Positions 10,959 through 58,134 of a stretch of 64,000 nt of DNA are shown here, in pieces. The position numbers were made by a program, and so were the translations under genes. The notes beneath the pieces are model-generated. The model was not told where the DNA came from. It did not search any database and worked only from the letters and a program-made list of their open reading frames with translations. How positions within the stretch are numbered: position 1 is the stretch's first letter; every line of letters begins with the position of its first letter. This DNA comes from an uncultured Gammaproteobacteria bacterium (GTDB lineage: Bacteria; Patescibacteriota; Patescibacteriia; UBA1558; S5-K13): NCBI GenBank assembly GCA_964486685.1, contig CAZAOE010000003.1, forward strand, positions 5,306-69,305, read 5' to 3'.

Positions 10959-11054
10959 TTTATCAAGTTAATTATTGGGTCGTCCGCCTACGCATAAAGC
11001 TACGGCAGGACTGAAATAAAATTAAAATTTGATATTTAAAATTTATTTGAAATT

Positions 11055-11078
11055 CCTGCCTGCCGGCAGGCAGGTATT
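11055..11078. repeat. 24-mer CCTGCCTGCCGGCAGGCAGGTATT (20-bp perfect palindrome) in the tRNA leader
   Basis: identical 24-mer recurs at 30781-30804 upstream of ackA; variant inside porA CDS at 33325-33348. Confidence 0.8.
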
Positions 11079-11232: not shown

Positions 11233-11322
11233 GGAGAGTTGCCAGAGCGGTCGAATGGGACAGTCTTGAAAACTGTTGAGCCTTTACGGGTTCCGGGGGT
11301 TCGAATCCCTCACTCTCCGCCA
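11233..11322 (+). tRNA. tRNA-Ser (anticodon TGA), type II with long variable arm
   Basis: acceptor GGAGAGT/ACTCTCC, anticodon loop CTTGAAA, long extra arm, GGTTCGAATCC T-loop, encoded CCA. Confidence 0.85.
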
Positions 11323-23940: not shown

Positions 23941-24441
23941 ATGAATTTTAAAAAAATACCAATTATATATCACATTGTTTGGGCAACTCACAGCACTAGA
24001 ATGTCAAAAAGAATGAAAAAATATAAGATAAAATTAAAAAATCCCATATACCTCGACATTAATATGAGATATGAGATTACGAAATATTTAATCAAAATTA
24101 TCAAAGAAGACAAAATTAATATATTGGCTCTCAACGTCTTACACCATCATGTACATTTAATTCTGATTTGTTTTAAATGGAAAAGAGATAATATTGTCCG
24201 CAAATTAAAAGGTAAAACAACTCAATTATATAAAAACAAACATAATATAAAAAAAGAATTCCACCTTTGGCAACAAAAATATAATCACAAAATAATAGAA
24301 TCTGAAGAGCAACTATATAACACCATAAATTATGTTAAAAATAATCATATTAAACACAACATATCTGTCCACAAGGGGTTGCAACCCCTTGTAAAAAAAG
24401 TTTTGTGTCCTGTCGAAGAAATGTATAAAAAAATAGATTAG
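23941..24441 (+). CDS. tnpA: IS200/IS605-family HUH (Y1) transposase / RAYT-like
   Basis: 166 aa; YHIVWATH N-terminal, HUH motif HHHVHLIL, catalytic-Tyr region NYVKNNH. Confidence 0.65.
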   Translation: MNFKKIPIIYHIVWATHSTRMSKRMKKYKIKLKNPIYLDINMRYEITKYLIKIIKEDKINILALNVLHHHVHLILICFKWKRDNIVRKLKGKTTQLYKNKHNIKKEFHLWQQKYNHKIIESEEQLYNTINYVKNNHIKHNISVHKGLQPLVKKVLCPVEEMYKKID

Positions 24442-24530
24442 TGTTAATTTAAAAACTAACTAACTAGACAGATATGATCAAAAACCTTGGGGTTGCAGCC
24501 CCTTGTGGAAAAAGCTCTGTGTTCTGTAAA
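24374..24530. repeat. two REP-like units: perfect palindrome ACAAGGGGTTGCAACCCCTTGT (24374-24395) and CCTTGGGGTTGCAGCCCCTTGTGG (24485-24508), each followed by AAAAAG(Y)T(Y)TGTGT(Y)CTGT
   Basis: ~45-bp direct repeat containing hairpins, at and downstream of the tnpA 3' end. Confidence 0.7.
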
Positions 24531-30661: not shown

Positions 30662-30780
30662 TTGAATAATAGAATAATAGGTTAATAGAAAATCATCATT
30701 TTTATACTTATAAATAATAAAATTATTCGTACTATTGGTATCATTCGTATAATTTATTAGTATTATTAGTACCATTCGTA

Positions 30781-30804
30781 CCTGCCTGCCGGCAGGCAGG
30801 TATT
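30781..30804. repeat. second exact copy of CCTGCCTGCCGGCAGGCAGGTATT, ~20 nt upstream of ackA
   Basis: identical to 11055-11078. Confidence 0.8.
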
Positions 30805-30825: not shown

Positions 30826-32010
30826 ATGAGGAAGCAAAAATACATTTTAGTTTTGAACAGTGGAAGCACTTCTTTGAAGTTCAAAATTTTTAATTACTAT
30901 AGTTTAAAAGAAATTCATTGTGGAGCGATAGAAAAAATCGGATTAAAAAAATCAATTATACAATTTGATAACTCTAATATTAAAAATAGAAAAACAATAA
31001 TTAATCATTCTCAAGCCCTAAAAATAATCAATGATTTTATAAAAAACGAAACTAATATAAAAATATCTTTAATCTTGCACAGAATAGTTCATGGAGGTGT
31101 GGAATTTAATCAAGCCACAAAATTAGACCAAAAAACAATAAATAAAATAAGTAAATATAATAATTTGGCTCCCTTACATAATCCAGTAAATTTAAAAGTT
31201 GCCCAAGAGGCCTTAAAAATCTGGCCGAGGATAAAACAAATAGGAATGTTTGATACTATGTTTTTTAAAAATATTCCCCTCCCAGCATACCTTTACCCGT
31301 TACCTCTAAAATATTTCCAAAAATATAATATTAGAAAATTTGGCTTTCATGGATTTTCCCACCAAAACATGTTGAAATGGTCTGCTAAAAATTTAAAAAA
31401 AAGAATAAATCAATGTAATTTGATAACCTGTCATCTAGGTGGGGGCTCTAGTATAGCTGTTATTAAAAATGGGGAACCCATAGAAATATCAATGGGCTTT
31501 AGTCCTTCGTCAGGGTTAATGATGATGAATAGAGCTGGCGACTTAGATCCAGCCATTATTTTCCATCTTTTAAAAAATGCTAAAATGTCCCTAAATCAAA
31601 TATATCAATTATTAAATTTTGAATCTGGGTTAAGGGGCATGACAAAAATTGGAGATTTGCGTGATATTATGATTTTAGCTGGATATAAAATAAAAAATTA
31701 TTCATCACCACGCCTCGAAAAAGGTCTAGGGGGTAAATCAAACACAAAAGCAACCAAAGAGAACAAACAACTCGCAAAATTAGCTTTAGATTTGTTTATA
31801 TACAAAATTCAAAGATATTTATCATCCTATATAACTTTATTACCAAAAATTGATGCCATTGTATTTAGTGGAGCAATAGGTGAAAGAAATGCGGATATTA
31901 GAAACTTAATATTTAAAAACATATATTTTCCTAAAAAATACAAAAAAATTATAGTTAAATGTAATGAAGAAAAAATAATGGCTGAAATAATTAAAAAAAT
32001 TAATTTATAA
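30826..32010 (+). CDS. ackA: acetate kinase
   Basis: ILVLNSGSTSLKFKIF N-terminus; HLGGGSS. Confidence 0.85.
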   Translation: MRKQKYILVLNSGSTSLKFKIFNYYSLKEIHCGAIEKIGLKKSIIQFDNSNIKNRKTIINHSQALKIINDFIKNETNIKISLILHRIVHGGVEFNQATKLDQKTINKISKYNNLAPLHNPVNLKVAQEALKIWPRIKQIGMFDTMFFKNIPLPAYLYPLPLKYFQKYNIRKFGFHGFSHQNMLKWSAKNLKKRINQCNLITCHLGGGSSIAVIKNGEPIEISMGFSPSSGLMMMNRAGDLDPAIIFHLLKNAKMSLNQIYQLLNFESGLRGMTKIGDLRDIMILAGYKIKNYSSPRLEKGLGGKSNTKATKENKQLAKLALDLFIYKIQRYLSSYITLLPKIDAIVFSGAIGERNADIRNLIFKNIYFPKKYKKIIVKCNEEKIMAEIIKKINL

Positions 32011-32495: not shown

Positions 32496-33570
32496 AAATA
32501 TGCCTAAAAAAACCTTAATTACTGGAAATGAAATAGTAGTTAAATCCGCTTTGGCTGCTGGGGCCAAGGCCTATTTTGGTTATCCGATTACTCCGGCCAC
32601 AGAAATAATGACTGAGTGGGATAAAGAATATGAGCAAAGAAAAGACCTAATATTTTTACAAACCGAAGATGAAATGTCGGCTGGCTTTGCCATGATTGGC
32701 TCGGTTTTAACTGGAATAAAAACTTTTACTGCCACCTCTGGACCAGGAAATATCTTAATGCAAGATGCTTTTGCAATGGCCGAAGCCATGCGTATCCCCA
32801 CAGTAGCAATTATTGGCCAAAGAGGAGGACCATCAACTGGCTCTGTTATTTATTCCCAACAAGAATTAACCTTAACGGCTTTTGGTGGTAATGGCGAGGG
32901 CTATCGCATAGTTTATTCACCTACTAATTTACAAGAGCTTTATGACCATATTATTAAGGCCTTTAATACTGCTTGGAAATATAAATTTCCGGTCTTTGTA
33001 CTGACTGATGGCTATACTTTAAAAACTCGAGCTTTAGTAGAATTAACCAAACCAAAAAATATAGTTAAATCTTATCCTTTAGTTCTAAAATCTAAAATTA
33101 GAAATAATTCTAAAGAATCTAATTATCAAAATCTAAACAATACTTTTGCCACCGAAGAACAATGTTATCAAGCCAATATAAATCTATTAAATGCCTTTAA
33201 TAAAATTAAGGATAAAATTACTGAATCAGAAATTTATTCTTTAAGCAAAAATCCTAAAACCTTAATAATTGCTCACGGCATCGTGGCTGCTTCTGTTAAA
33301 CAAGCGATTAATGATTCTAAGAACCTTGCCTACCGGCAGGCAGGTAGAAAAGTTAAGCTCTTCCGACCAATTACTTTGAACCCTTTTCCAGATAAAAATT
33401 TAAAGAAAAATTTAAAGGGGATTAAAAAAATAATTATCGTTGAATCAGCTGCCAATCAATTATTAAAACTGGTTAAAGAAAATATTTATGGTGCTAAAAT
33501 TCCCATCCAAACTTATTGCCGACCAGGATTAGGAATTAGTCCAGAGGAGATAATAAAATTAATAAAATAA
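32488..33570 (+). CDS. porA: 2-oxoacid:ferredoxin oxidoreductase alpha subunit
   Basis: LITGNEIVVKSALAAGAKAYFGYPITPATEI; start set at MNKNMPKK preceded by AGGGGATGAG (ORF-track start 32458). Confidence 0.8.
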   Translation: MNKNMPKKTLITGNEIVVKSALAAGAKAYFGYPITPATEIMTEWDKEYEQRKDLIFLQTEDEMSAGFAMIGSVLTGIKTFTATSGPGNILMQDAFAMAEAMRIPTVAIIGQRGGPSTGSVIYSQQELTLTAFGGNGEGYRIVYSPTNLQELYDHIIKAFNTAWKYKFPVFVLTDGYTLKTRALVELTKPKNIVKSYPLVLKSKIRNNSKESNYQNLNNTFATEEQCYQANINLLNAFNKIKDKITESEIYSLSKNPKTLIIAHGIVAASVKQAINDSKNLAYRQAGRKVKLFRPITLNPFPDKNLKKNLKGIKKIIIVESAANQLLKLVKENIYGAKIPIQTYCRPGLGISPEEIIKLIK

Positions 33571-36050: not shown

Positions 36051-36249
36051 TTTTTGCTGAGTAAAAAATCACTTCTTAAATCAACATCTTTAATTTTGAA
36101 TTTTCAATTTTGAATTTTAATTAAATTCTCAATGACTTAATTTACAAACATAAATGAAAATTGAAAATTGGTTATTTACCCTGTTAAATTATTTTTCCAA
36201 AATACTATTTAACAGGGTAAAATGTAAATTGTAAATTTCAAATTGTAAA

Positions 36250-37137
36250 TTGTATATGAATATCTCTATCATCATCGTTAATTATAAAGTCAAAGACCTG
36301 CTGGACAATTGCCTCCAGTCTATTTTTAGTAATTCGGAAAATATAGAGTTGGATGTAATTGTGGTAGATAATAATTCTCAAGATGGTAGCGTAGAAATGG
36401 TTAAAAAAAAATATCCGCAAATTAATTTAATTGCTTCTCCGGAAAATCTCGGTTTTGCTAAAGCCAATAATCTTGGTTTTCAAAAAGCTAAATCCCCACA
36501 CCTTAAAAAAGGTGATGGGGATAAATATGACTATATTTTACTTTTAAATCCAGACATGAAGTTATTCCCAAATACCTTAGAAAATGCTCTAAAATGGGCA
36601 AATATGCATCCTCAAGCCCAAGTAATTGGCTGTCATCTAATAGATCAAAATAATCAAACTATTTTTCATATTCGTCAATTTCCAACTCTTTTAGATCAAT
36701 TGGCTATTATTTTAAAACTGCCCCATATTTTCCCGCAAATTCTAAATAAATACTTACGAAAAAAATTTGATTATTCTCAAGCCAGTAAGGTTGATTCTGT
36801 ACGCGGAGCATTTTTTTTAGTTCAACGCAAAACCTATGAGGGGCTTCAAGGATTAGATGAAAAATATTTTGTTTGGTTTGAAGAAGTTGATTTTTGTAAA
36901 AAAGTTTATGAGAGTGGAGGAGAGGTGTGGTATACTCCAGATGCTAAATGCATTGATTATGTTGGTAAAAGTTTCTCTCAAGTACCTCGAGGCGTAACTC
37001 AAAAATATTTTCGCGACTCTATGCTAAAATATTTTAAAAAATGGCATCCATGTTGGCAGTGGATAATTTTAAAAATAGCTTGGGTAATCGGTGCCTTGCT
37101 AGCAAAATTAAAAATTAAATCACAAATAAAAACATAA
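36250..37137 (+). CDS. family 2 glycosyltransferase
   Basis: ISIIIVNYK ... VIVVDNNSQDGS; carries in-frame palindromic element at 36492-36528. Confidence 0.8.
   Translation: MYMNISIIIVNYKVKDLLDNCLQSIFSNSENIELDVIVVDNNSQDGSVEMVKKKYPQINLIASPENLGFAKANNLGFQKAKSPHLKKGDGDKYDYILLLNPDMKLFPNTLENALKWANMHPQAQVIGCHLIDQNNQTIFHIRQFPTLLDQLAIILKLPHIFPQILNKYLRKKFDYSQASKVDSVRGAFFLVQRKTYEGLQGLDEKYFVWFEEVDFCKKVYESGGEVWYTPDAKCIDYVGKSFSQVPRGVTQKYFRDSMLKYFKKWHPCWQWIILKIAWVIGALLAKLKIKSQIKT
36492..36528. repeat. in-frame palindromic mini-element (family B) ATCCCCACACCTT-AAAAA-AGGTGATGGGGAT encoding SPHLKKGDGDK
   Basis: near-identical element at 56131-56161 inside miaA; intergenic relative at 43468-43578. Confidence 0.8.
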
Positions 37138-43388: not shown

Positions 43389-43610
43389 ATACTTTGTTAT
43401 TTAATTATCAATTTGAAATTTTCATTGAATTACAAATTACCAATTTGAAATTGAATAATTGAAAATTAACCCCATCACCTTTTTTGCAAAATAATATCAA
43501 AAAATTATTTTAAAAAAATTATATAATAAAATTAAGATATCAAATTTTAAATTAAAAGGTGAGGGGTTAAATTCAAATTAAAAATTGATCATTGGTAATT
43601 GAAATCATTT

Positions 43611-44687
43611 CTAGCTAACTATATTCAAACTATATTTACAATTCTGACATAAACCACTCTTGTCATTCCTTGTAATGATATACCCTTGTCTTTCAATATT
43701 CAAGGCCCCACACTCTGGACAATAGGTATTTTCTCTATCATCTTCCGCAATATTACCTAAATAAACATATTTTAAACCTACTTCCTTACCAATACCATAG
43801 GCCTGATCTAATTCTTTTTCTGAAGTAGCTTGCTTAGACAAAAGTTTATAAGAAATTTCTGGAGAAAATTTAGAAATATGCCAAGGTGTATCTACACCCA
43901 ATTCTTTTTTAATAAACTCAGCTATCTTCTTAATTTGTCCTTGAACATTAGTTTCTCCTGGAATAATTAGAGTAGTCACCTCTATAAAAACTTTTTTTTG
44001 TTTTAAATAAACTAAATTATTTAGAATTGGTTCTAAAGAACCTCCTGTTATTCTTTTATATTTTTTATCTAAGAAAAATTTTAAGTCCACATTAATAGCA
44101 TCTAAATAGGGGAGTATTAAATCCAAACATTTTTGACTCATAAAACCATTAGAAACCCAGACATTTTTTAATTTATGTTCATGGGCCAATTTCATAATTG
44201 GCAAAGCAGTTTCCAAAAATACTGTTGGTTCAGTATAGGTATAAGCAATGGAAAGACAATTATTATCTTTAGCTTCGGCAATGATTTCTGCGGGCTCAAT
44301 TAATTCTCCAGGAAATCTACTATCTAATTTCTCAATTTTTTGTAACTGGGAAATCTGCCAATTCTGACAATTAAGACAATGAAAATTACAGCCCATGCCA
44401 GCAATAGAATAAGTCAAACTACCTGGTAAAAAATGAAAAAAAGGTTTCTTTTCAATAGGATCAATGTTTTTAGCAATCAATTTATTATAATTTAAAGCAT
44501 ATAATTTGCCCTGAATATTTTTCCGCACCCCACAAACCCCAACATGATTTTCAGCAATACTACAAAAATGATTGCATAACTCGCAATTTACAACACCGCT
44601 AACTTTCTCCCCCTTTTTAAGAGGGAGGTGTCCGGAGGACAAAGAGGGTTTACCTTTTTTATATAATAAAGCTTCGTGCATACTCAT
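43611..44687 (-). CDS. radical SAM enzyme, AmmeMemoRadiSam-system (AmrS)/PflA-like
   Basis: CNFHCLNCQNW cluster motif; C-terminal CPECG...CQNCK zinc ribbon; N-terminus carries in-frame family-A element. Confidence 0.7.
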   Translation of the reverse strand: MSMHEALLYKKGKPSLSSGHLPLKKGEKVSGVVNCELCNHFCSIAENHVGVCGVRKNIQGKLYALNYNKLIAKNIDPIEKKPFFHFLPGSLTYSIAGMGCNFHCLNCQNWQISQLQKIEKLDSRFPGELIEPAEIIAEAKDNNCLSIAYTYTEPTVFLETALPIMKLAHEHKLKNVWVSNGFMSQKCLDLILPYLDAINVDLKFFLDKKYKRITGGSLEPILNNLVYLKQKKVFIEVTTLIIPGETNVQGQIKKIAEFIKKELGVDTPWHISKFSPEISYKLLSKQATSEKELDQAYGIGKEVGLKYVYLGNIAEDDRENTYCPECGALNIERQGYIITRNDKSGLCQNCKYSLNIVS

Positions 44688-52291: not shown

Positions 52292-52660
52292 TCAATTTCT
52301 TCTTTTAAATTTACCTAAATCTCTCAAAAAATCTCGCAAAAACCTTATTGCCTCAGAACAATTATGATAAGAATCTTTTTGTTCTTCTTTTAAATAATTA
52401 CCTCCTATACCTATTTCTTCTCCAGTACTAACTTTTTCTCCCAACATATCATTTCCTATTTTTTCTAACTTTTCAATGTAATCATTAACCGCTCTTTCAA
52501 CTTCTGAAACCCCCACAATCTCTTCATTAAGCTTATCAATTAGTTCTTTGGCTGTTAATTCTCCATTTACAATATCATTAAGCCTACCATTAAAAATTTC
52601 TTTAATATTATCCTCTGCATGATTAATGGCTTCCATGGCCTCGGCGGGTAGTCCACACAT
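52292..52660 (-). CDS. hypothetical acidic helical protein (lone minus-strand gene)
   Basis: 122 aa; no motifs. Confidence 0.35.
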   Translation of the reverse strand: MCGLPAEAMEAINHAEDNIKEIFNGRLNDIVNGELTAKELIDKLNEEIVGVSEVERAVNDYIEKLEKIGNDMLGEKVSTGEEIGIGGNYLKEEQKDSYHNCSEAIRFLRDFLRDLGKFKRRN

Positions 52661-55685: not shown

Positions 55686-55779
55686 CTCAACCTCCTATAT
55701 TTGATTTTTAAATTTGCTCAAAAAAAATACCATTATATTTATAGTATTTTTTTTAATTATACAGGGTTTTTAAAAGAAG

Positions 55780-58134
55780 TCAATTTTTTAAAAATCTCTT
55801 TACCAATTTTTCTGCTTCTTGAATATTTTTAACCCAGACAATATCTTTCCTTTTCTTAAACCAGGTTAATTGCCTTTTAGCAAAATGATGGATGTCCTTA
55901 GATAAGTTTTGAAATAATTCCTGCTCATTAATTTCTTTTTTTAGGTATTTGGCTATCCAACGATATTCTAACCCAAAATCAGCTAAACGCTTCCAAGAGA
56001 CCCCATTTTTTCGCAAATTTCGCACCTCTTGAACCATTCCTTGTTTTTCCAAACGATATTTTAACCGCTTATCAATGCATTTATAAATTATATCTTTATC
56101 CCAATACTTATTATTAAATTGTGTGGATTTATCCCCACCACCTTTCTTGAGGTGTGGGGATTTATCATGCTTTATACCTAAAATCAAAATGTCTAAATCT
56201 GGTTTTTTCTTTTTCATTTTAGTAATAGAATTACCGCTTTTAGCTATTTCAATCGCCCGGATTATTCTTCGCAAATTATTTACATCTATAGTTTTAAAAG
56301 CTTTGGGGTCTAATTTCTTCAACTTATTTTGCAATTGTTTTAAAGATAATTTATTCAACTGAGCTCTTAATTTTTTATCTATTTTTATATCTTCTAAAAC
56401 ATAACCATCAATAATTGAATTCAAATACAAACCTGTCCCGCCAACTAAAATTGGTAATTTACCTTGCTGATTTAATTCTTCAATCTTTTCAAAAGCTAAT
56501 TTTTGCCAATCTTTTAAAGTAATTTGCTCTTTAGGATTAGCAATATCTATCAAATGATAAGAAATGCCTTTGTAATCTCCCAAATCCTTACCAGTCCCAA
56601 TATCCATTCCTTTATAAACTTGCCGTGAATCAGCTGAAATTATTTCTCCTTTAAACTTCTTAGCTAAATCAACTCCAATTTTTGTTTTTCCACAAGCAGT
56701 GGGACCGAGGACTACTACTAATTTATTTCTAACTTTCTCAGCTTCCATACTCCAATTCAAGGCACCAGTAATCTTAACATTAATAAATTTACCCAGCACC
56801 TTTTTATCCAAAATGGTGCTGGGTTTACCCAAATCTTCTTTTTGAACATTTTTAACTCTTACCGTCTCATTATTTTTCATTTTAGCCACAGCAATATTAC
56901 TCTTAACGCTTTGCACTAAAACTCTCTCTGTACTTCCAACAAATTTCTTGTTTTTCTGAGCTGATATTTGAGCAACTGCTTTAGTAACTTCTTCATCCCG
57001 AGCTCTTTTTTCTTTTTGAGTAATTTCATCTTCATAAATCTTAGCTGATACTGCACCTGGACGAGGAGAGTAGAGTCCAGTAAAAATTGAAGTAAATTTA
57101 CATTTTTTCACAGCTCGTAAAGAATCTTGAAAATCTTTTTTAGTTTCCTTTGGAAAACCAAGAATAATATCAGTAGTTAAATTAGCTTCTGGAATATATT
57201 TATAAATCTGCTCAACTATCTTATAAAACTGTTTCAGATCATATTTCCGATTCATTAATTTCAAAATTTTGTCACTTCCGGATTGTAATGGTAAATGGAT
57301 ATGCTTGGAAATATTATCATATTTAGCAATAACTTTAATTAATTTTAAATCAAATTTACTTGGATAAGGAGAAAGAAAACTAATCCAAGTATTTGGTTTT
57401 AAAATTGCTACTTGTTCTAATAAATCCGCGAAGTCCCGAACTTGCCTGCCCTGTCTTGGACCTCGACTGTGATGGAGAGGAGTTTGTCGAAGGGGTTGAT
57501 GGGCGAAGTCCCAAGCCTGTCGAGGGGCGAAGTCTTTAATCTTTGATTTCTGATCAGAATTAAGATAAGAATTAACGGTTTGACCTAATAAAATAATTTT
57601 TTTAACTTCATCACTCAAATTTTTCACTTCTTTTAATATTTTCTGAACTGAACGATTCACTTCTCGACCGCGAGTATAGGGCACAGCACAATAAGTACAA
57701 AATTGATTACAGCCATTGGATATAGGGATTAAGGCCTCAAAACTATTTTCTGCTTTAGAATTTACTTCCAAATATAAATTATTTTCCGGACAATATTGAT
57801 AATGCTTTTTATGGGCCTCAATTAAGTTTGGCAATTCTTTAATTTTAGTAATATCAATAATAATATCAAACCTATCTTGTAATTTTTTAAAATCAGTAGC
57901 CAAAACACAGCCACTTAAAATTTTAATTACCCCTTTCTTTAATTTCTTTTTATGAAAAACTCCGTAAGCTCGATCAATTGCACTTTGACGAACACTACAA
58001 GAAAGGATAGCTATAATATCTGCTTTTTCCATTTGTTCTACTTTTTCAAATCCAACTGTATCAAAAACAGTAGCCAATTTCTCTGCATCAGCTTGATTCA
58101 TCGCACAACCGAAATATCTTAAGTAGTATCTCAT
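55780..58134 (-). CDS. miaB-miaA: fusion protein: MiaB-like methylthiotransferase fused to MiaA tRNA dimethylallyltransferase
   Basis: 784 aa; N-terminal MTTase domain (YFGCAMNQ), radical SAM CNQFCTYC, then P-loop VVLGPTACGKT...ADSRQVYKGMDIGT of MiaA; two in-frame GC-rich insertions. Confidence 0.8.
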   Translation of the reverse strand: MRYYLRYFGCAMNQADAEKLATVFDTVGFEKVEQMEKADIIAILSCSVRQSAIDRAYGVFHKKKLKKGVIKILSGCVLATDFKKLQDRFDIIIDITKIKELPNLIEAHKKHYQYCPENNLYLEVNSKAENSFEALIPISNGCNQFCTYCAVPYTRGREVNRSVQKILKEVKNLSDEVKKIILLGQTVNSYLNSDQKSKIKDFAPRQAWDFAHQPLRQTPLHHSRGPRQGRQVRDFADLLEQVAILKPNTWISFLSPYPSKFDLKLIKVIAKYDNISKHIHLPLQSGSDKILKLMNRKYDLKQFYKIVEQIYKYIPEANLTTDIILGFPKETKKDFQDSLRAVKKCKFTSIFTGLYSPRPGAVSAKIYEDEITQKEKRARDEEVTKAVAQISAQKNKKFVGSTERVLVQSVKSNIAVAKMKNNETVRVKNVQKEDLGKPSTILDKKVLGKFINVKITGALNWSMEAEKVRNKLVVVLGPTACGKTKIGVDLAKKFKGEIISADSRQVYKGMDIGTGKDLGDYKGISYHLIDIANPKEQITLKDWQKLAFEKIEELNQQGKLPILVGGTGLYLNSIIDGYVLEDIKIDKKLRAQLNKLSLKQLQNKLKKLDPKAFKTIDVNNLRRIIRAIEIAKSGNSITKMKKKKPDLDILILGIKHDKSPHLKKGGGDKSTQFNNKYWDKDIIYKCIDKRLKYRLEKQGMVQEVRNLRKNGVSWKRLADFGLEYRWIAKYLKKEINEQELFQNLSKDIHHFAKRQLTWFKKRKDIVWVKNIQEAEKLVKRFLKN
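56131..56161. repeat. in-frame palindromic mini-element (family B) ATCCCCACCACCTT-TCTTG-AGGTGTGGGGAT inside miaA, encoding SPHLKKGGGDK
   Basis: sister copy of 36492-36528. Confidence 0.8.
57426..57536. repeat. GC-rich ~110-bp in-frame insertion in miaB with triple GCGAAGTC(C) direct repeat and CCCCTCGACAGGCTT motif
   Basis: ~55% GC versus ~30% genome; inserted between conserved NVNxY and FADLL segments; related CCCCTCGACAAGCTC tandem at window positions 25-59. Confidence 0.75.

Follow-up and report, generated by a model that had tools for sequence, protein, structure and literature searches.

A gene joining MiaB and MiaA in a Patescibacteria genome, and the short in-frame insertions within it

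The window analysed here, a stretch of 64,000 nucleotides from contig CAZAOE010000003.1 (GenBank assembly GCA_964486685.1), comes from an uncultured bacterium that GTDB places in the Patescibacteriota. On its minus strand lies miaBA, an open reading frame (ORF) that runs from an ATG at 58134 to a TGA with no internal stop codons, and that encodes a methylthiotransferase (MTTase) of the MiaB family and, further along the same chain, a tRNA dimethylallyltransferase of the MiaA family. The gene also carries three short in-frame insertions, numbered 1 to 3 below. Its main parts, placed by the ORF listing, a reading of the sequence, domain models and a structural model, are:

55780..58134, minus strand: miaB-miaA fusion ORF, complete, 784 codons and a TGA stop codon at 55780-55782
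57865..58131, minus strand: MTTase N-terminal domain UPF0004, residues 2-90 (Pfam PF00919, E 1.8e-15)
57115..57729, minus strand: Radical_SAM core, residues 136-340 (Pfam PF04055, E 2.7e-26)
56731..56949, minus strand: TRAM RNA-binding domain, residues 396-468, containing insertion 2 (Pfam PF01938, E 1.8e-4)
56722..56742, minus strand: fusion junction, residues 465-471, AEKVRNK (from the secondary structure of the model)
55783..56730, minus strand: MiaA (IPPT) half, residues 469-784 (PF01715 and TIGR00174)

A sequence-only reading of this stretch had proposed a single polypeptide in which an entire MiaB module precedes an entire MiaA, and domain searches, PDB matches, the AlphaFold model and Foldseek all bear this out. 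The UPF0004, Radical_SAM, TRAM and IPPT domains were each found, the IPPT match (PF01715, residues 505-761) with an E-value of 1.2e-58 and 199 bits against a cutoff of 23.6. Because insertion 2 breaks up the domain, TRAM passes only marginally, at 21.7 bits where the cutoff is 21. Among the NCBIfam models, those for the MiaB/RimO family (TIGR00089, 332 bits against 251) and for MiaA (TIGR00174, 194.4 bits against 148.65) are passed.

The residues expected of both enzymes are present, and the N-domain cysteines, CxxxCxxC cluster, TRAM region and P-loop named in the earlier reading were all recovered by Pfam and a motif check. The auxiliary [4Fe-4S] cluster ligands C10, C46 and C76 are in place in the MTTase N-domain, and the radical-SAM (S-adenosylmethionine) motif C142xxxC146xxC149 (57688-57711) is intact. 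So too are the MiaA P-loop GPTACGKT (residues 477-484, 56683-56706), which fits GxTxxGK[ST], and the MiaA catalytic motif ADSRQVY (residues 500-507), which fits D-S-x-Q-[VI]-Y. In an alignment of 82 fused homologues C46, C76, C142, C146, C149, G477, G482, K483, D502 and S503 are invariant; C10 drops out because the start of several database sequences had been placed at Met12. Some gene callers chose Met12 as the start, yet C10 is upstream of it, which identifies the ATG at 58134 as the real one.

A PDB sequence search aligned the N-terminal half with MiaB of Bacteroides uniformis (7MJV, E 2e-63; 7MJZ, about 1e-63), and the C-terminal half with MiaA of Bacillus halodurans (2QGN, E 2e-55). The AlphaFold2 model, built on the 82-sequence alignment, has a mean predicted local distance difference test score (pLDDT) of 88.6 and a predicted template modelling (TM) score, pTM, of 0.79. 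Foldseek matched it to the full-length MiaB-RNA complexes 7MJV and 7MJZ with target-normalised TM scores of 0.87-0.88, and to the E. coli MiaA-tRNA complexes 3FOZ and 2ZM5 with scores of 0.83-0.84 across about 325 columns; the tRNA-clamping insertion domain is part of this match. The TRAM region was modelled as beta strands. Low-confidence stretches are confined to residues 203-228 and 659-675, together with a dip at 431-450, all of which correspond to insertions; pLDDT falls below 50 at residues 203-228, 659-666 and 670-675.

In this model the last TRAM strand (residues 463-467) and the first MiaA strand (residues 470-476) are separated by 2-3 residues, and the two halves appear to be joined with essentially zero linker. 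Judged by motifs and model, each half seems fit for catalysis. In its domains, folds and residues that bind cofactors the protein agrees with the stand-alone MiaA and MiaB enzymes known from E. coli, Bacteroides uniformis and Bacillus (7MJV-7MJZ; 2QGN/3EXA, 2ZM5/3FOZ), as it does in the predicted two-step chemistry at A37, and the enzyme halves are ordinary MiaB and MiaA family members. The window protein differs from them in being a single chain, MiaB then MiaA, with almost no linker and three lineage-specific loop insertions.

An obvious concern is that the fusion is an artefact, in which a sequencing or assembly error deleted the stop codon between adjacent genes. Several relatives do have separate, adjacent miaB and miaA, and in one of them (L139) the sequence ...WGLEGKITNSK*-Q-MSNVK... 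places the miaB stop, one codon and the miaA ATG in one frame throughout, so that a single base error could mimic a fusion. The earlier reading had itself named a hidden stop near 56800, with artificial read-through, as the way in which it might fail. No stop or frameshift was found at 56750-56900, and the junction (...NWSMEAEKVRNKLVVVLGPTACGKT...) is continuous in frame and conserved in homologues. A look-up of a 773-aa version of the product returned an independent ENA contig, recorded in 9 samples, with 0 mismatches to the window over 5,322 bp, and the identical 784-aa protein (P0121) is present on 5 NCBI/IMG contigs; with these identical copies, an explanation by read-through does not apply. 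More than 100 distinct fused homologues share the junction W-S/G-M/L-E-A/G...K-L-V-V-V-L-G-P-T, which lacks the N-terminal extension and start codon of separate miaA genes. An artefact is thus barely credible, and effectively refuted already.

The architecture had been called uncommon, and this holds across bacteria, while it fails within one Patescibacteria clade. An exhaustive search (representatives at 50% identity, E ≤ 1e-30) gave 4,628 hits, among which were about 15 full-length fused representatives and a few junction-spanning fragments, whereas 116 of the 120 best database relatives carry both MTTase and IPPT on one chain of 545-805 aa. The fusion is therefore rare across bacteria and standard in one Patescibacteria clade. 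Where the source of a fused relative is named, it is a Patescibacteria group, with Parcubacteria, Paceibacterota and Buchananbacteria among them. The fused database proteins (P0002-P0120) are identical in architecture, 35-82% identical in sequence to the window protein, and show no difference in kind from it. One JGI record is titled 'MiaB/tRNA dimethylallyltransferase' and several NCBI records 'MiaB'. No paper describing a MiaB-MiaA fusion was found among the papers that could be searched, and the fused form is an existing but unpublished database architecture. Its insertions make the window protein 67-79 residues longer than the insert-free relatives nearest to it (705-717 aa). A tblastn search of the window for a second miaA or miaB copy returned the gene itself and one spurious site, the match of the MiaA half to 36494-36520 through a shared mini-element peptide.

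The best relatives are mostly fused, and others have separate miaB and miaA, adjacent or overlapping; miaA directly follows miaB in other Patescibacteria, Acidimicrobiia and Chloroflexi (for example L139, L009, L047 and L003). A scan of genome contigs gave, among the matches listed, mostly distant unfused MiaB genes, with adjacent miaB-miaA pairs also seen, and a protein search with the junction alone gave only stand-alone MiaA proteins and no further fusions. Many Patescibacteria retain separate miaA and miaB. These pairs share gene order and orientation with miaBA; they encode two polypeptides, whereas the window gene lacks the stop codon, the intergenic codon and the MiaA N-terminal extension. 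The adjacent, overlapping and in-frame but separate pairs show how the fusion arose, by loss of the stop codon from a conserved, translationally coupled miaB-miaA pair.

The neighbourhood is kept in close relatives: threonyl-tRNA synthetase, a small ORF, MiaBA, PyrB, PyrI and GatB. A promoter-like site on the minus strand (55756-55783; TTGACT, a 16-nt spacer and TATAAT), with 11/12 consensus matches and identified by consensus match only, overlaps the stop codon of miaBA and lies upstream of pyrB-pyrI.

By homology, the C-terminal MiaA half is predicted to attach the dimethylallyl group of dimethylallyl diphosphate (DMAPP) at N6 of A37, its tRNAs being those for UNN codons, which carry A36-A37-A38. 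The MiaB half, with its two [4Fe-4S] clusters, radical-SAM core and TRAM domain, would then methylthiolate C2 of the same base, converting N6-dimethylallyladenosine (i6A) to the 2-methylthio derivative ms2i6A37. A predicted substrate is encoded in the window: tRNA-Ser(UGA) (11233-11322, plus strand), whose anticodon loop CUUGAAA contains A36-A37-A38. PDB entries of MiaA and MiaB have established that each flips A37 into a buried site, and one anticodon loop can therefore be in only one of the two at a time. For this reason the gain from fusion would most plausibly lie in fixed 1:1 stoichiometry and local retention of the intermediate. Fusion would presumably guarantee 1:1 co-expression and keep i6A-tRNA near the second active site, and the substrate channelling proposed in the earlier reading would then be a local hand-off, not a physical channel. 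MnmC, the bifunctional enzyme of mnm5s2U34 synthesis, likewise places in two domains of a single chain consecutive steps on one tRNA nucleotide. Its folds and chemistry are unrelated to those of MiaBA, and the likeness is an analogy only, between fused consecutive-step tRNA modifiers.

Two inserted mini-elements had been reported in the gene; there are in fact three insertion sites. They were mapped by a codon-level DNA alignment against an insert-free orthologue (L001, 80% nucleotide identity), in which three clean insertions of 99, 36 and 66 bp, all multiples of 3, are apparent:

57436..57534, minus strand: insertion 1, 99 bp, 55% GC, residues 201-233 (DFAPRQAWDFAHQPLRQTPLHHSRGPRQGRQVR); a clean gap against L001
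56796..56831, minus strand: insertion 2, 36 bp, encoding LGKPSTILDKKV; a gap against L001, L084, L085 and L086
56101..56166, minus strand: insertion 3, 66 bp, residues 657-678 (DKSPHLKKGGGDKSTQFNNKYW); a gap against five orthologues

Insertion 2 has the form TAAA[CCCAGCACC-N14-GGTGCTGGG]TAAA, a near-perfect hairpin (-14.4 kcal/mol, z-score -5.7) flanked by a duplicated (G)GTAAA target, with two copies of the direct repeat (T)GGGTAAA. Insertion 3 contains GATAAA three times; its first 33-bp unit holds the hairpin CCCCACACC-N8-GGTGGTGGGG (z-score -3.5), and the second, an AT-rich unit also of 33 bp, reads as decayed or internally deleted. Insertion 1 contains GACTTCGC three times, at its start, at +24 and just after its end. 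As target repeats occur three times in insertions 1 and 3, both look like double insertions, and insertion 1 looks like a 24-bp unit and a 75-bp unit at one target. Insertion 1 has no significant hairpin, its folding z-score against shuffled sequence being +0.47, and was rejected as a hairpin element. Shorter versions of it occupy the same site in L084, P0013, P0017 and P0018, and a motif related to it, CCCCTCGACAAGCTC, occurs twice at window positions 27-61. As a separate observation, these positions at the window edge hold two tandem copies of AACCCCTCGACAAGCTC, a motif also found inside insertion 1 and in a 24-bp insertion of L084.

GC content reaches about 50% in the scanned segments that cover insertion 1, where the genome as a whole has about 30%, and the hairpin of insertion 3 shows up as a GC island. 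The flanking duplications are 4-8 bp (TAAA/GGTAAA, (G)ATAAA(T), TTAA, TTTA), a length that is not constant and that A/T-rich flanks can extend by chance matching. Rfam gave no known RNA family over the insertions or their flanks, only two tRNAs passing threshold in the whole window. Inteins and introns were rejected on size (12-33 aa) and on the absence of any motif. On the proposed course of events, three GC-rich mini-insertions would have colonised the gene in frame after fusion, including two hairpin elements whose A/T-rich targets are duplicated, and would be translated as disordered surface loops of 12-33 residues. They appear to be tolerated passengers, not functional modules.

On the evidence of sequence and model, the reading preferred here, with a probability of about 0.85, is that miaBA would be a genuine bifunctional enzyme produced by stop loss, with the in-frame insertions as tolerated passengers. 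Several points weigh against it. The MiaB equivalog model TIGR01574 is under its cutoff (314.9 bits against 355.3), as is NF010916, and the choice of MiaB over another MTTase rests on the order of best hits, the PDB matches and the fusion partner. Activity may also have been lost through the positions of the insertions: the first falls within a beta-alpha loop of the radical-SAM barrel, on its catalytic face, the second inside the RNA-binding TRAM domain and the third inside MiaA. The near-absent linker of the model may also restrict the movement of one tRNA between the two sites, a hand-off in trans or none being equally possible. That the N-terminal half belongs to another kind of methylthiotransferase, for instance MtaB, whose substrate is t6A37, or RimO, would fit the passing of only the broad MiaB/RimO model. 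It is nonetheless very improbable, as MiaB is the best-scoring specific MTTase model (314.9 bits, against 240 for MtaB and 191 for RimO), MiaB also heads the PDB matches by sequence and by fold, and the covalent link to MiaA, with the conserved adjacency in unfused relatives, points to an i6A37 substrate. The equivalog shortfall is probably due to insertion 1, where the HMMER alignment to MiaB breaks, splitting the match. A somewhat less remote alternative, still improbable, accepts the fusion and holds that the gene is decaying, the insertions having inactivated one or both halves of a dispensable gene. In its favour, every window-specific insertion in the ~17 kb comparable with relatives sits in MiaBA, miaBA orthologues carry different insertions at at least eight sites (most neighbouring genes carry none), suggesting relaxed constraint, and miaA and miaB are non-essential in model bacteria. 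Yet the gene has no frameshift or stop and retains every catalytic residue, is 73-82% identical to insert-free orthologues outside the insertions, and has all of its insertions in predicted disordered loops of an otherwise high-confidence model.

The hairpin elements of miaBA have relatives elsewhere, in the window and in other genomes. The insertion-2 element, with one base changed, is present in an unrelated small gene of L084 (15792-15823), a close relative of about 68-90% protein identity, at the same local target (GAT TTA GGT AAA | TTT), and the site is empty in the window orthologue of that gene (ORF 52292-52660). Window and L083 agree at every base of the element's 32-nt core, where the host genes are ~80% identical, and the chance of this under equal divergence is ~0.0008. 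The hairpin also occurs on 52 metagenome contigs (L087-L138) of 28-55% GC, usually after (G)TAAA, and on 16 of these it lies within open frames of at least 120 codons. In several of these contigs, the CCCAGCACC...GGTGCTGGG hairpin stands just before a pilin-like GFTLLE N-terminal motif, giving ...FTQHHFWNKNGAGFTLLE, which suggests recurrent insertion at GGTTTAC/GTAAACC targets in pseudopilin genes. The L084 arginyl-tRNA synthetase gene has two further in-frame insertions, SKTPTKMER and LAEGLDRSGENRSGEEKP, both absent from the window. A 60-bp element with CCCTGTTAAAT terminal repeats, encoding PVKSCGAGISPSVKLFN, occupies two different positions in miaBA orthologues, and has intergenic relatives at window 36178-36218.

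The further copies and GC-rich hairpins of this kind, and a candidate transposase gene, are:

36494..36520, plus strand: sister copy of the insertion-3 hairpin, CCCCACACC-N8-GGTGATGGGG, with flanks TAAAT/ATAAAT
Window 80-179 and about 43470-43560; L083 2951-3058; L084 21848-21917 and 21936-22005: long forms resembling MITEs (miniature inverted-repeat transposable elements)
33315-33353: in-frame GC-rich hairpin in a pyruvate:ferredoxin oxidoreductase subunit gene, NLAYRQAGR
31703-31735: in-frame GC-rich hairpin in an acetate kinase gene, SSPRLEKGLGG
44600-44660: in-frame GC-rich hairpin in a radical-SAM protein gene, KPSLSSGHLPLKKGE
23941-24441, plus strand: ORF of 166 aa, resembling a REP (repetitive extragenic palindrome)-associated tyrosine transposase (RAYT); IS200-like Y1 transposase family PF01797, E 4.6e-9

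The sister copy of the insertion-3 hairpin matches it at 24/27 bases, where 0 matches are expected by chance, and folds with a z-score of -7.3; its host is a family-2 glycosyltransferase gene (36250-37137, Pfam GT2), in which it is read in frame as KSPHLKKGDGD. The insertion-3 hairpin also shares its 9-10-bp GC-rich termini with the MITE-like long forms, which are intergenic elements of 70-108 bp with an AT-rich interior between CCCCACACC and GGTGTGGGG termini, and with flanking duplications of TTTA, TTAA or ATAAAT. GC-rich hairpins number 25 in the window against 1-4 in shuffled sequence, a 6- to 25-fold excess. Among other repeats, a CCTGCCTGCCGGCAGGCAGG-type palindrome was noted in three copies (11051-11078, 30779-30802 and 33322-33345), of which one is intergenic, one is just upstream of the acetate kinase start and one is inside the oxidoreductase gene. 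Near the window edge, the 5' end of a dTDP-glucose dehydratase-like gene (206-390) looks duplicated: AAAATTTTTATCACTGGCGGCGCC at 209-232 follows its own ATG and meets an early stop, and the real ORF, with its start at 342, contains a near-identical copy at 363-386. The ~130 bp of repeat-rich, GC-rich DNA between the two copies has the look of an insertion by which the original start was displaced.

Several known systems offer a comparison. Rickettsia palindromic elements (RPEs; Ogata et al. 2000, 2002) are summarised in PMC10969869, the first reported ones being about 150 bp; as given there, they are palindromic repeats found in frame in unrelated housekeeping genes, read as extra surface segments and variable between related genomes, features that the window elements share. 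In common with RPEs and MITEs, the elements occur in multiple dispersed copies, differ in presence between genomes, have known empty sites and flanking target-site duplications, and form hairpins in insertions 2 and 3 and the sister copy, although not in insertion 1. They differ from RPEs in that the copies within ORFs are several-fold smaller, at 26-60 bp, GC-rich in an AT-rich genome and visibly flanked by duplications, and in that the host belongs to the Patescibacteria and not to Rickettsia. By analogy, they would behave like RPEs without being members of the RPE family. In having target duplications and inverted repeats at their ends, the long forms resemble prokaryotic MITEs.

Short hairpins dispersed in many copies also recall REP/REPIN elements, which RAYT (Y1/HUH) transposases mobilise, and the window holds a RAYT-like gene (23941-24441). 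Its best NCBIfam match, NF047646 'REP-associated tyrosine transposase', is below cutoff (41.6 against 80). REP-like hairpins stand at its 3' end (24371-24392 and 24486-24508; CAAGGGGTTGCAACCCCTTG, CTTGGGGTTGCAGCCCCTTG), one of them within its own coding sequence. The gene is a speculative candidate for the mobiliser of the hairpin elements. REPs are extragenic by definition, whereas the window elements also lie inside ORFs; Y1 (RAYT/IS200-type) transposition normally makes no target duplication, whereas the window elements have flanking duplications; and the hairpins beside the gene (CAAGGGGTTGCAACCCCTTG) differ in sequence type from the miaBA elements. Among the papers that could be searched, none was found on in-frame palindromes or RAYT/REPIN in bacteria of the candidate phyla radiation (CPR).

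A tentative proposal, held at rather less than even odds, is that miaBA is a hotspot for undescribed, ultra-short (26-60 bp), GC-rich palindromic mobile elements of AT-rich Patescibacteria genomes, present as minimal hairpins in genes and as 70-108-bp MITE-like forms between genes, and amounting to a miniature, distant counterpart of RPEs, possibly mobilised by the RAYT-like Y1 transposase of 23941-24441. Such elements would insert beside A/T-rich tetra- to hexanucleotides, their genic copies being translated as extra loops. It is unlikely, though a shade less so than decay of the gene, that the segments are not mobile at all and are instead local loop expansions, made by replication slippage or duplication at tolerant sites. 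Each insertion is bounded by repeats of local sequence, with internal target repeats in insertions 1 and 3; insertion 1 lacks a significant hairpin and has relatives only at the level of motifs; and different insertions occupy the same loop in several orthologues, as selection for tolerant sites would produce. Slippage does not readily account for the near-identical insertion-2 element in an unrelated gene of another genome with a known empty site, or for its hairpin on the 52 metagenome contigs. Nor does it explain the termini that insertion-3 hairpins share with intergenic elements having flanking duplications, the 60-bp element at two different sites in orthologues, or inserted DNA of 50-55% GC in a genome of 30% GC.

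As the fusion is already present, though undiscussed, in databases, its description changes little. It provides an example of streamlined Patescibacteria genomes merging translationally coupled gene pairs into single genes, and a natural MiaB-MiaA chain with next to no linker would be a handy single-protein system for following the passage of a tRNA between two enzymes that flip A37. The in-frame mini-hairpins are the more novel lead, with miaBA the best-decorated example in the window. In such tiny genomes, translated mobile hairpins seem to be scattered through the housekeeping genes, which affects gene calling, domain-score thresholds (probably including the failure of the MiaB equivalog) and comparisons of protein length. 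If so, they would be a second, independent example of the phenomenon known from Rickettsia, that of selfish DNA living inside proteins.

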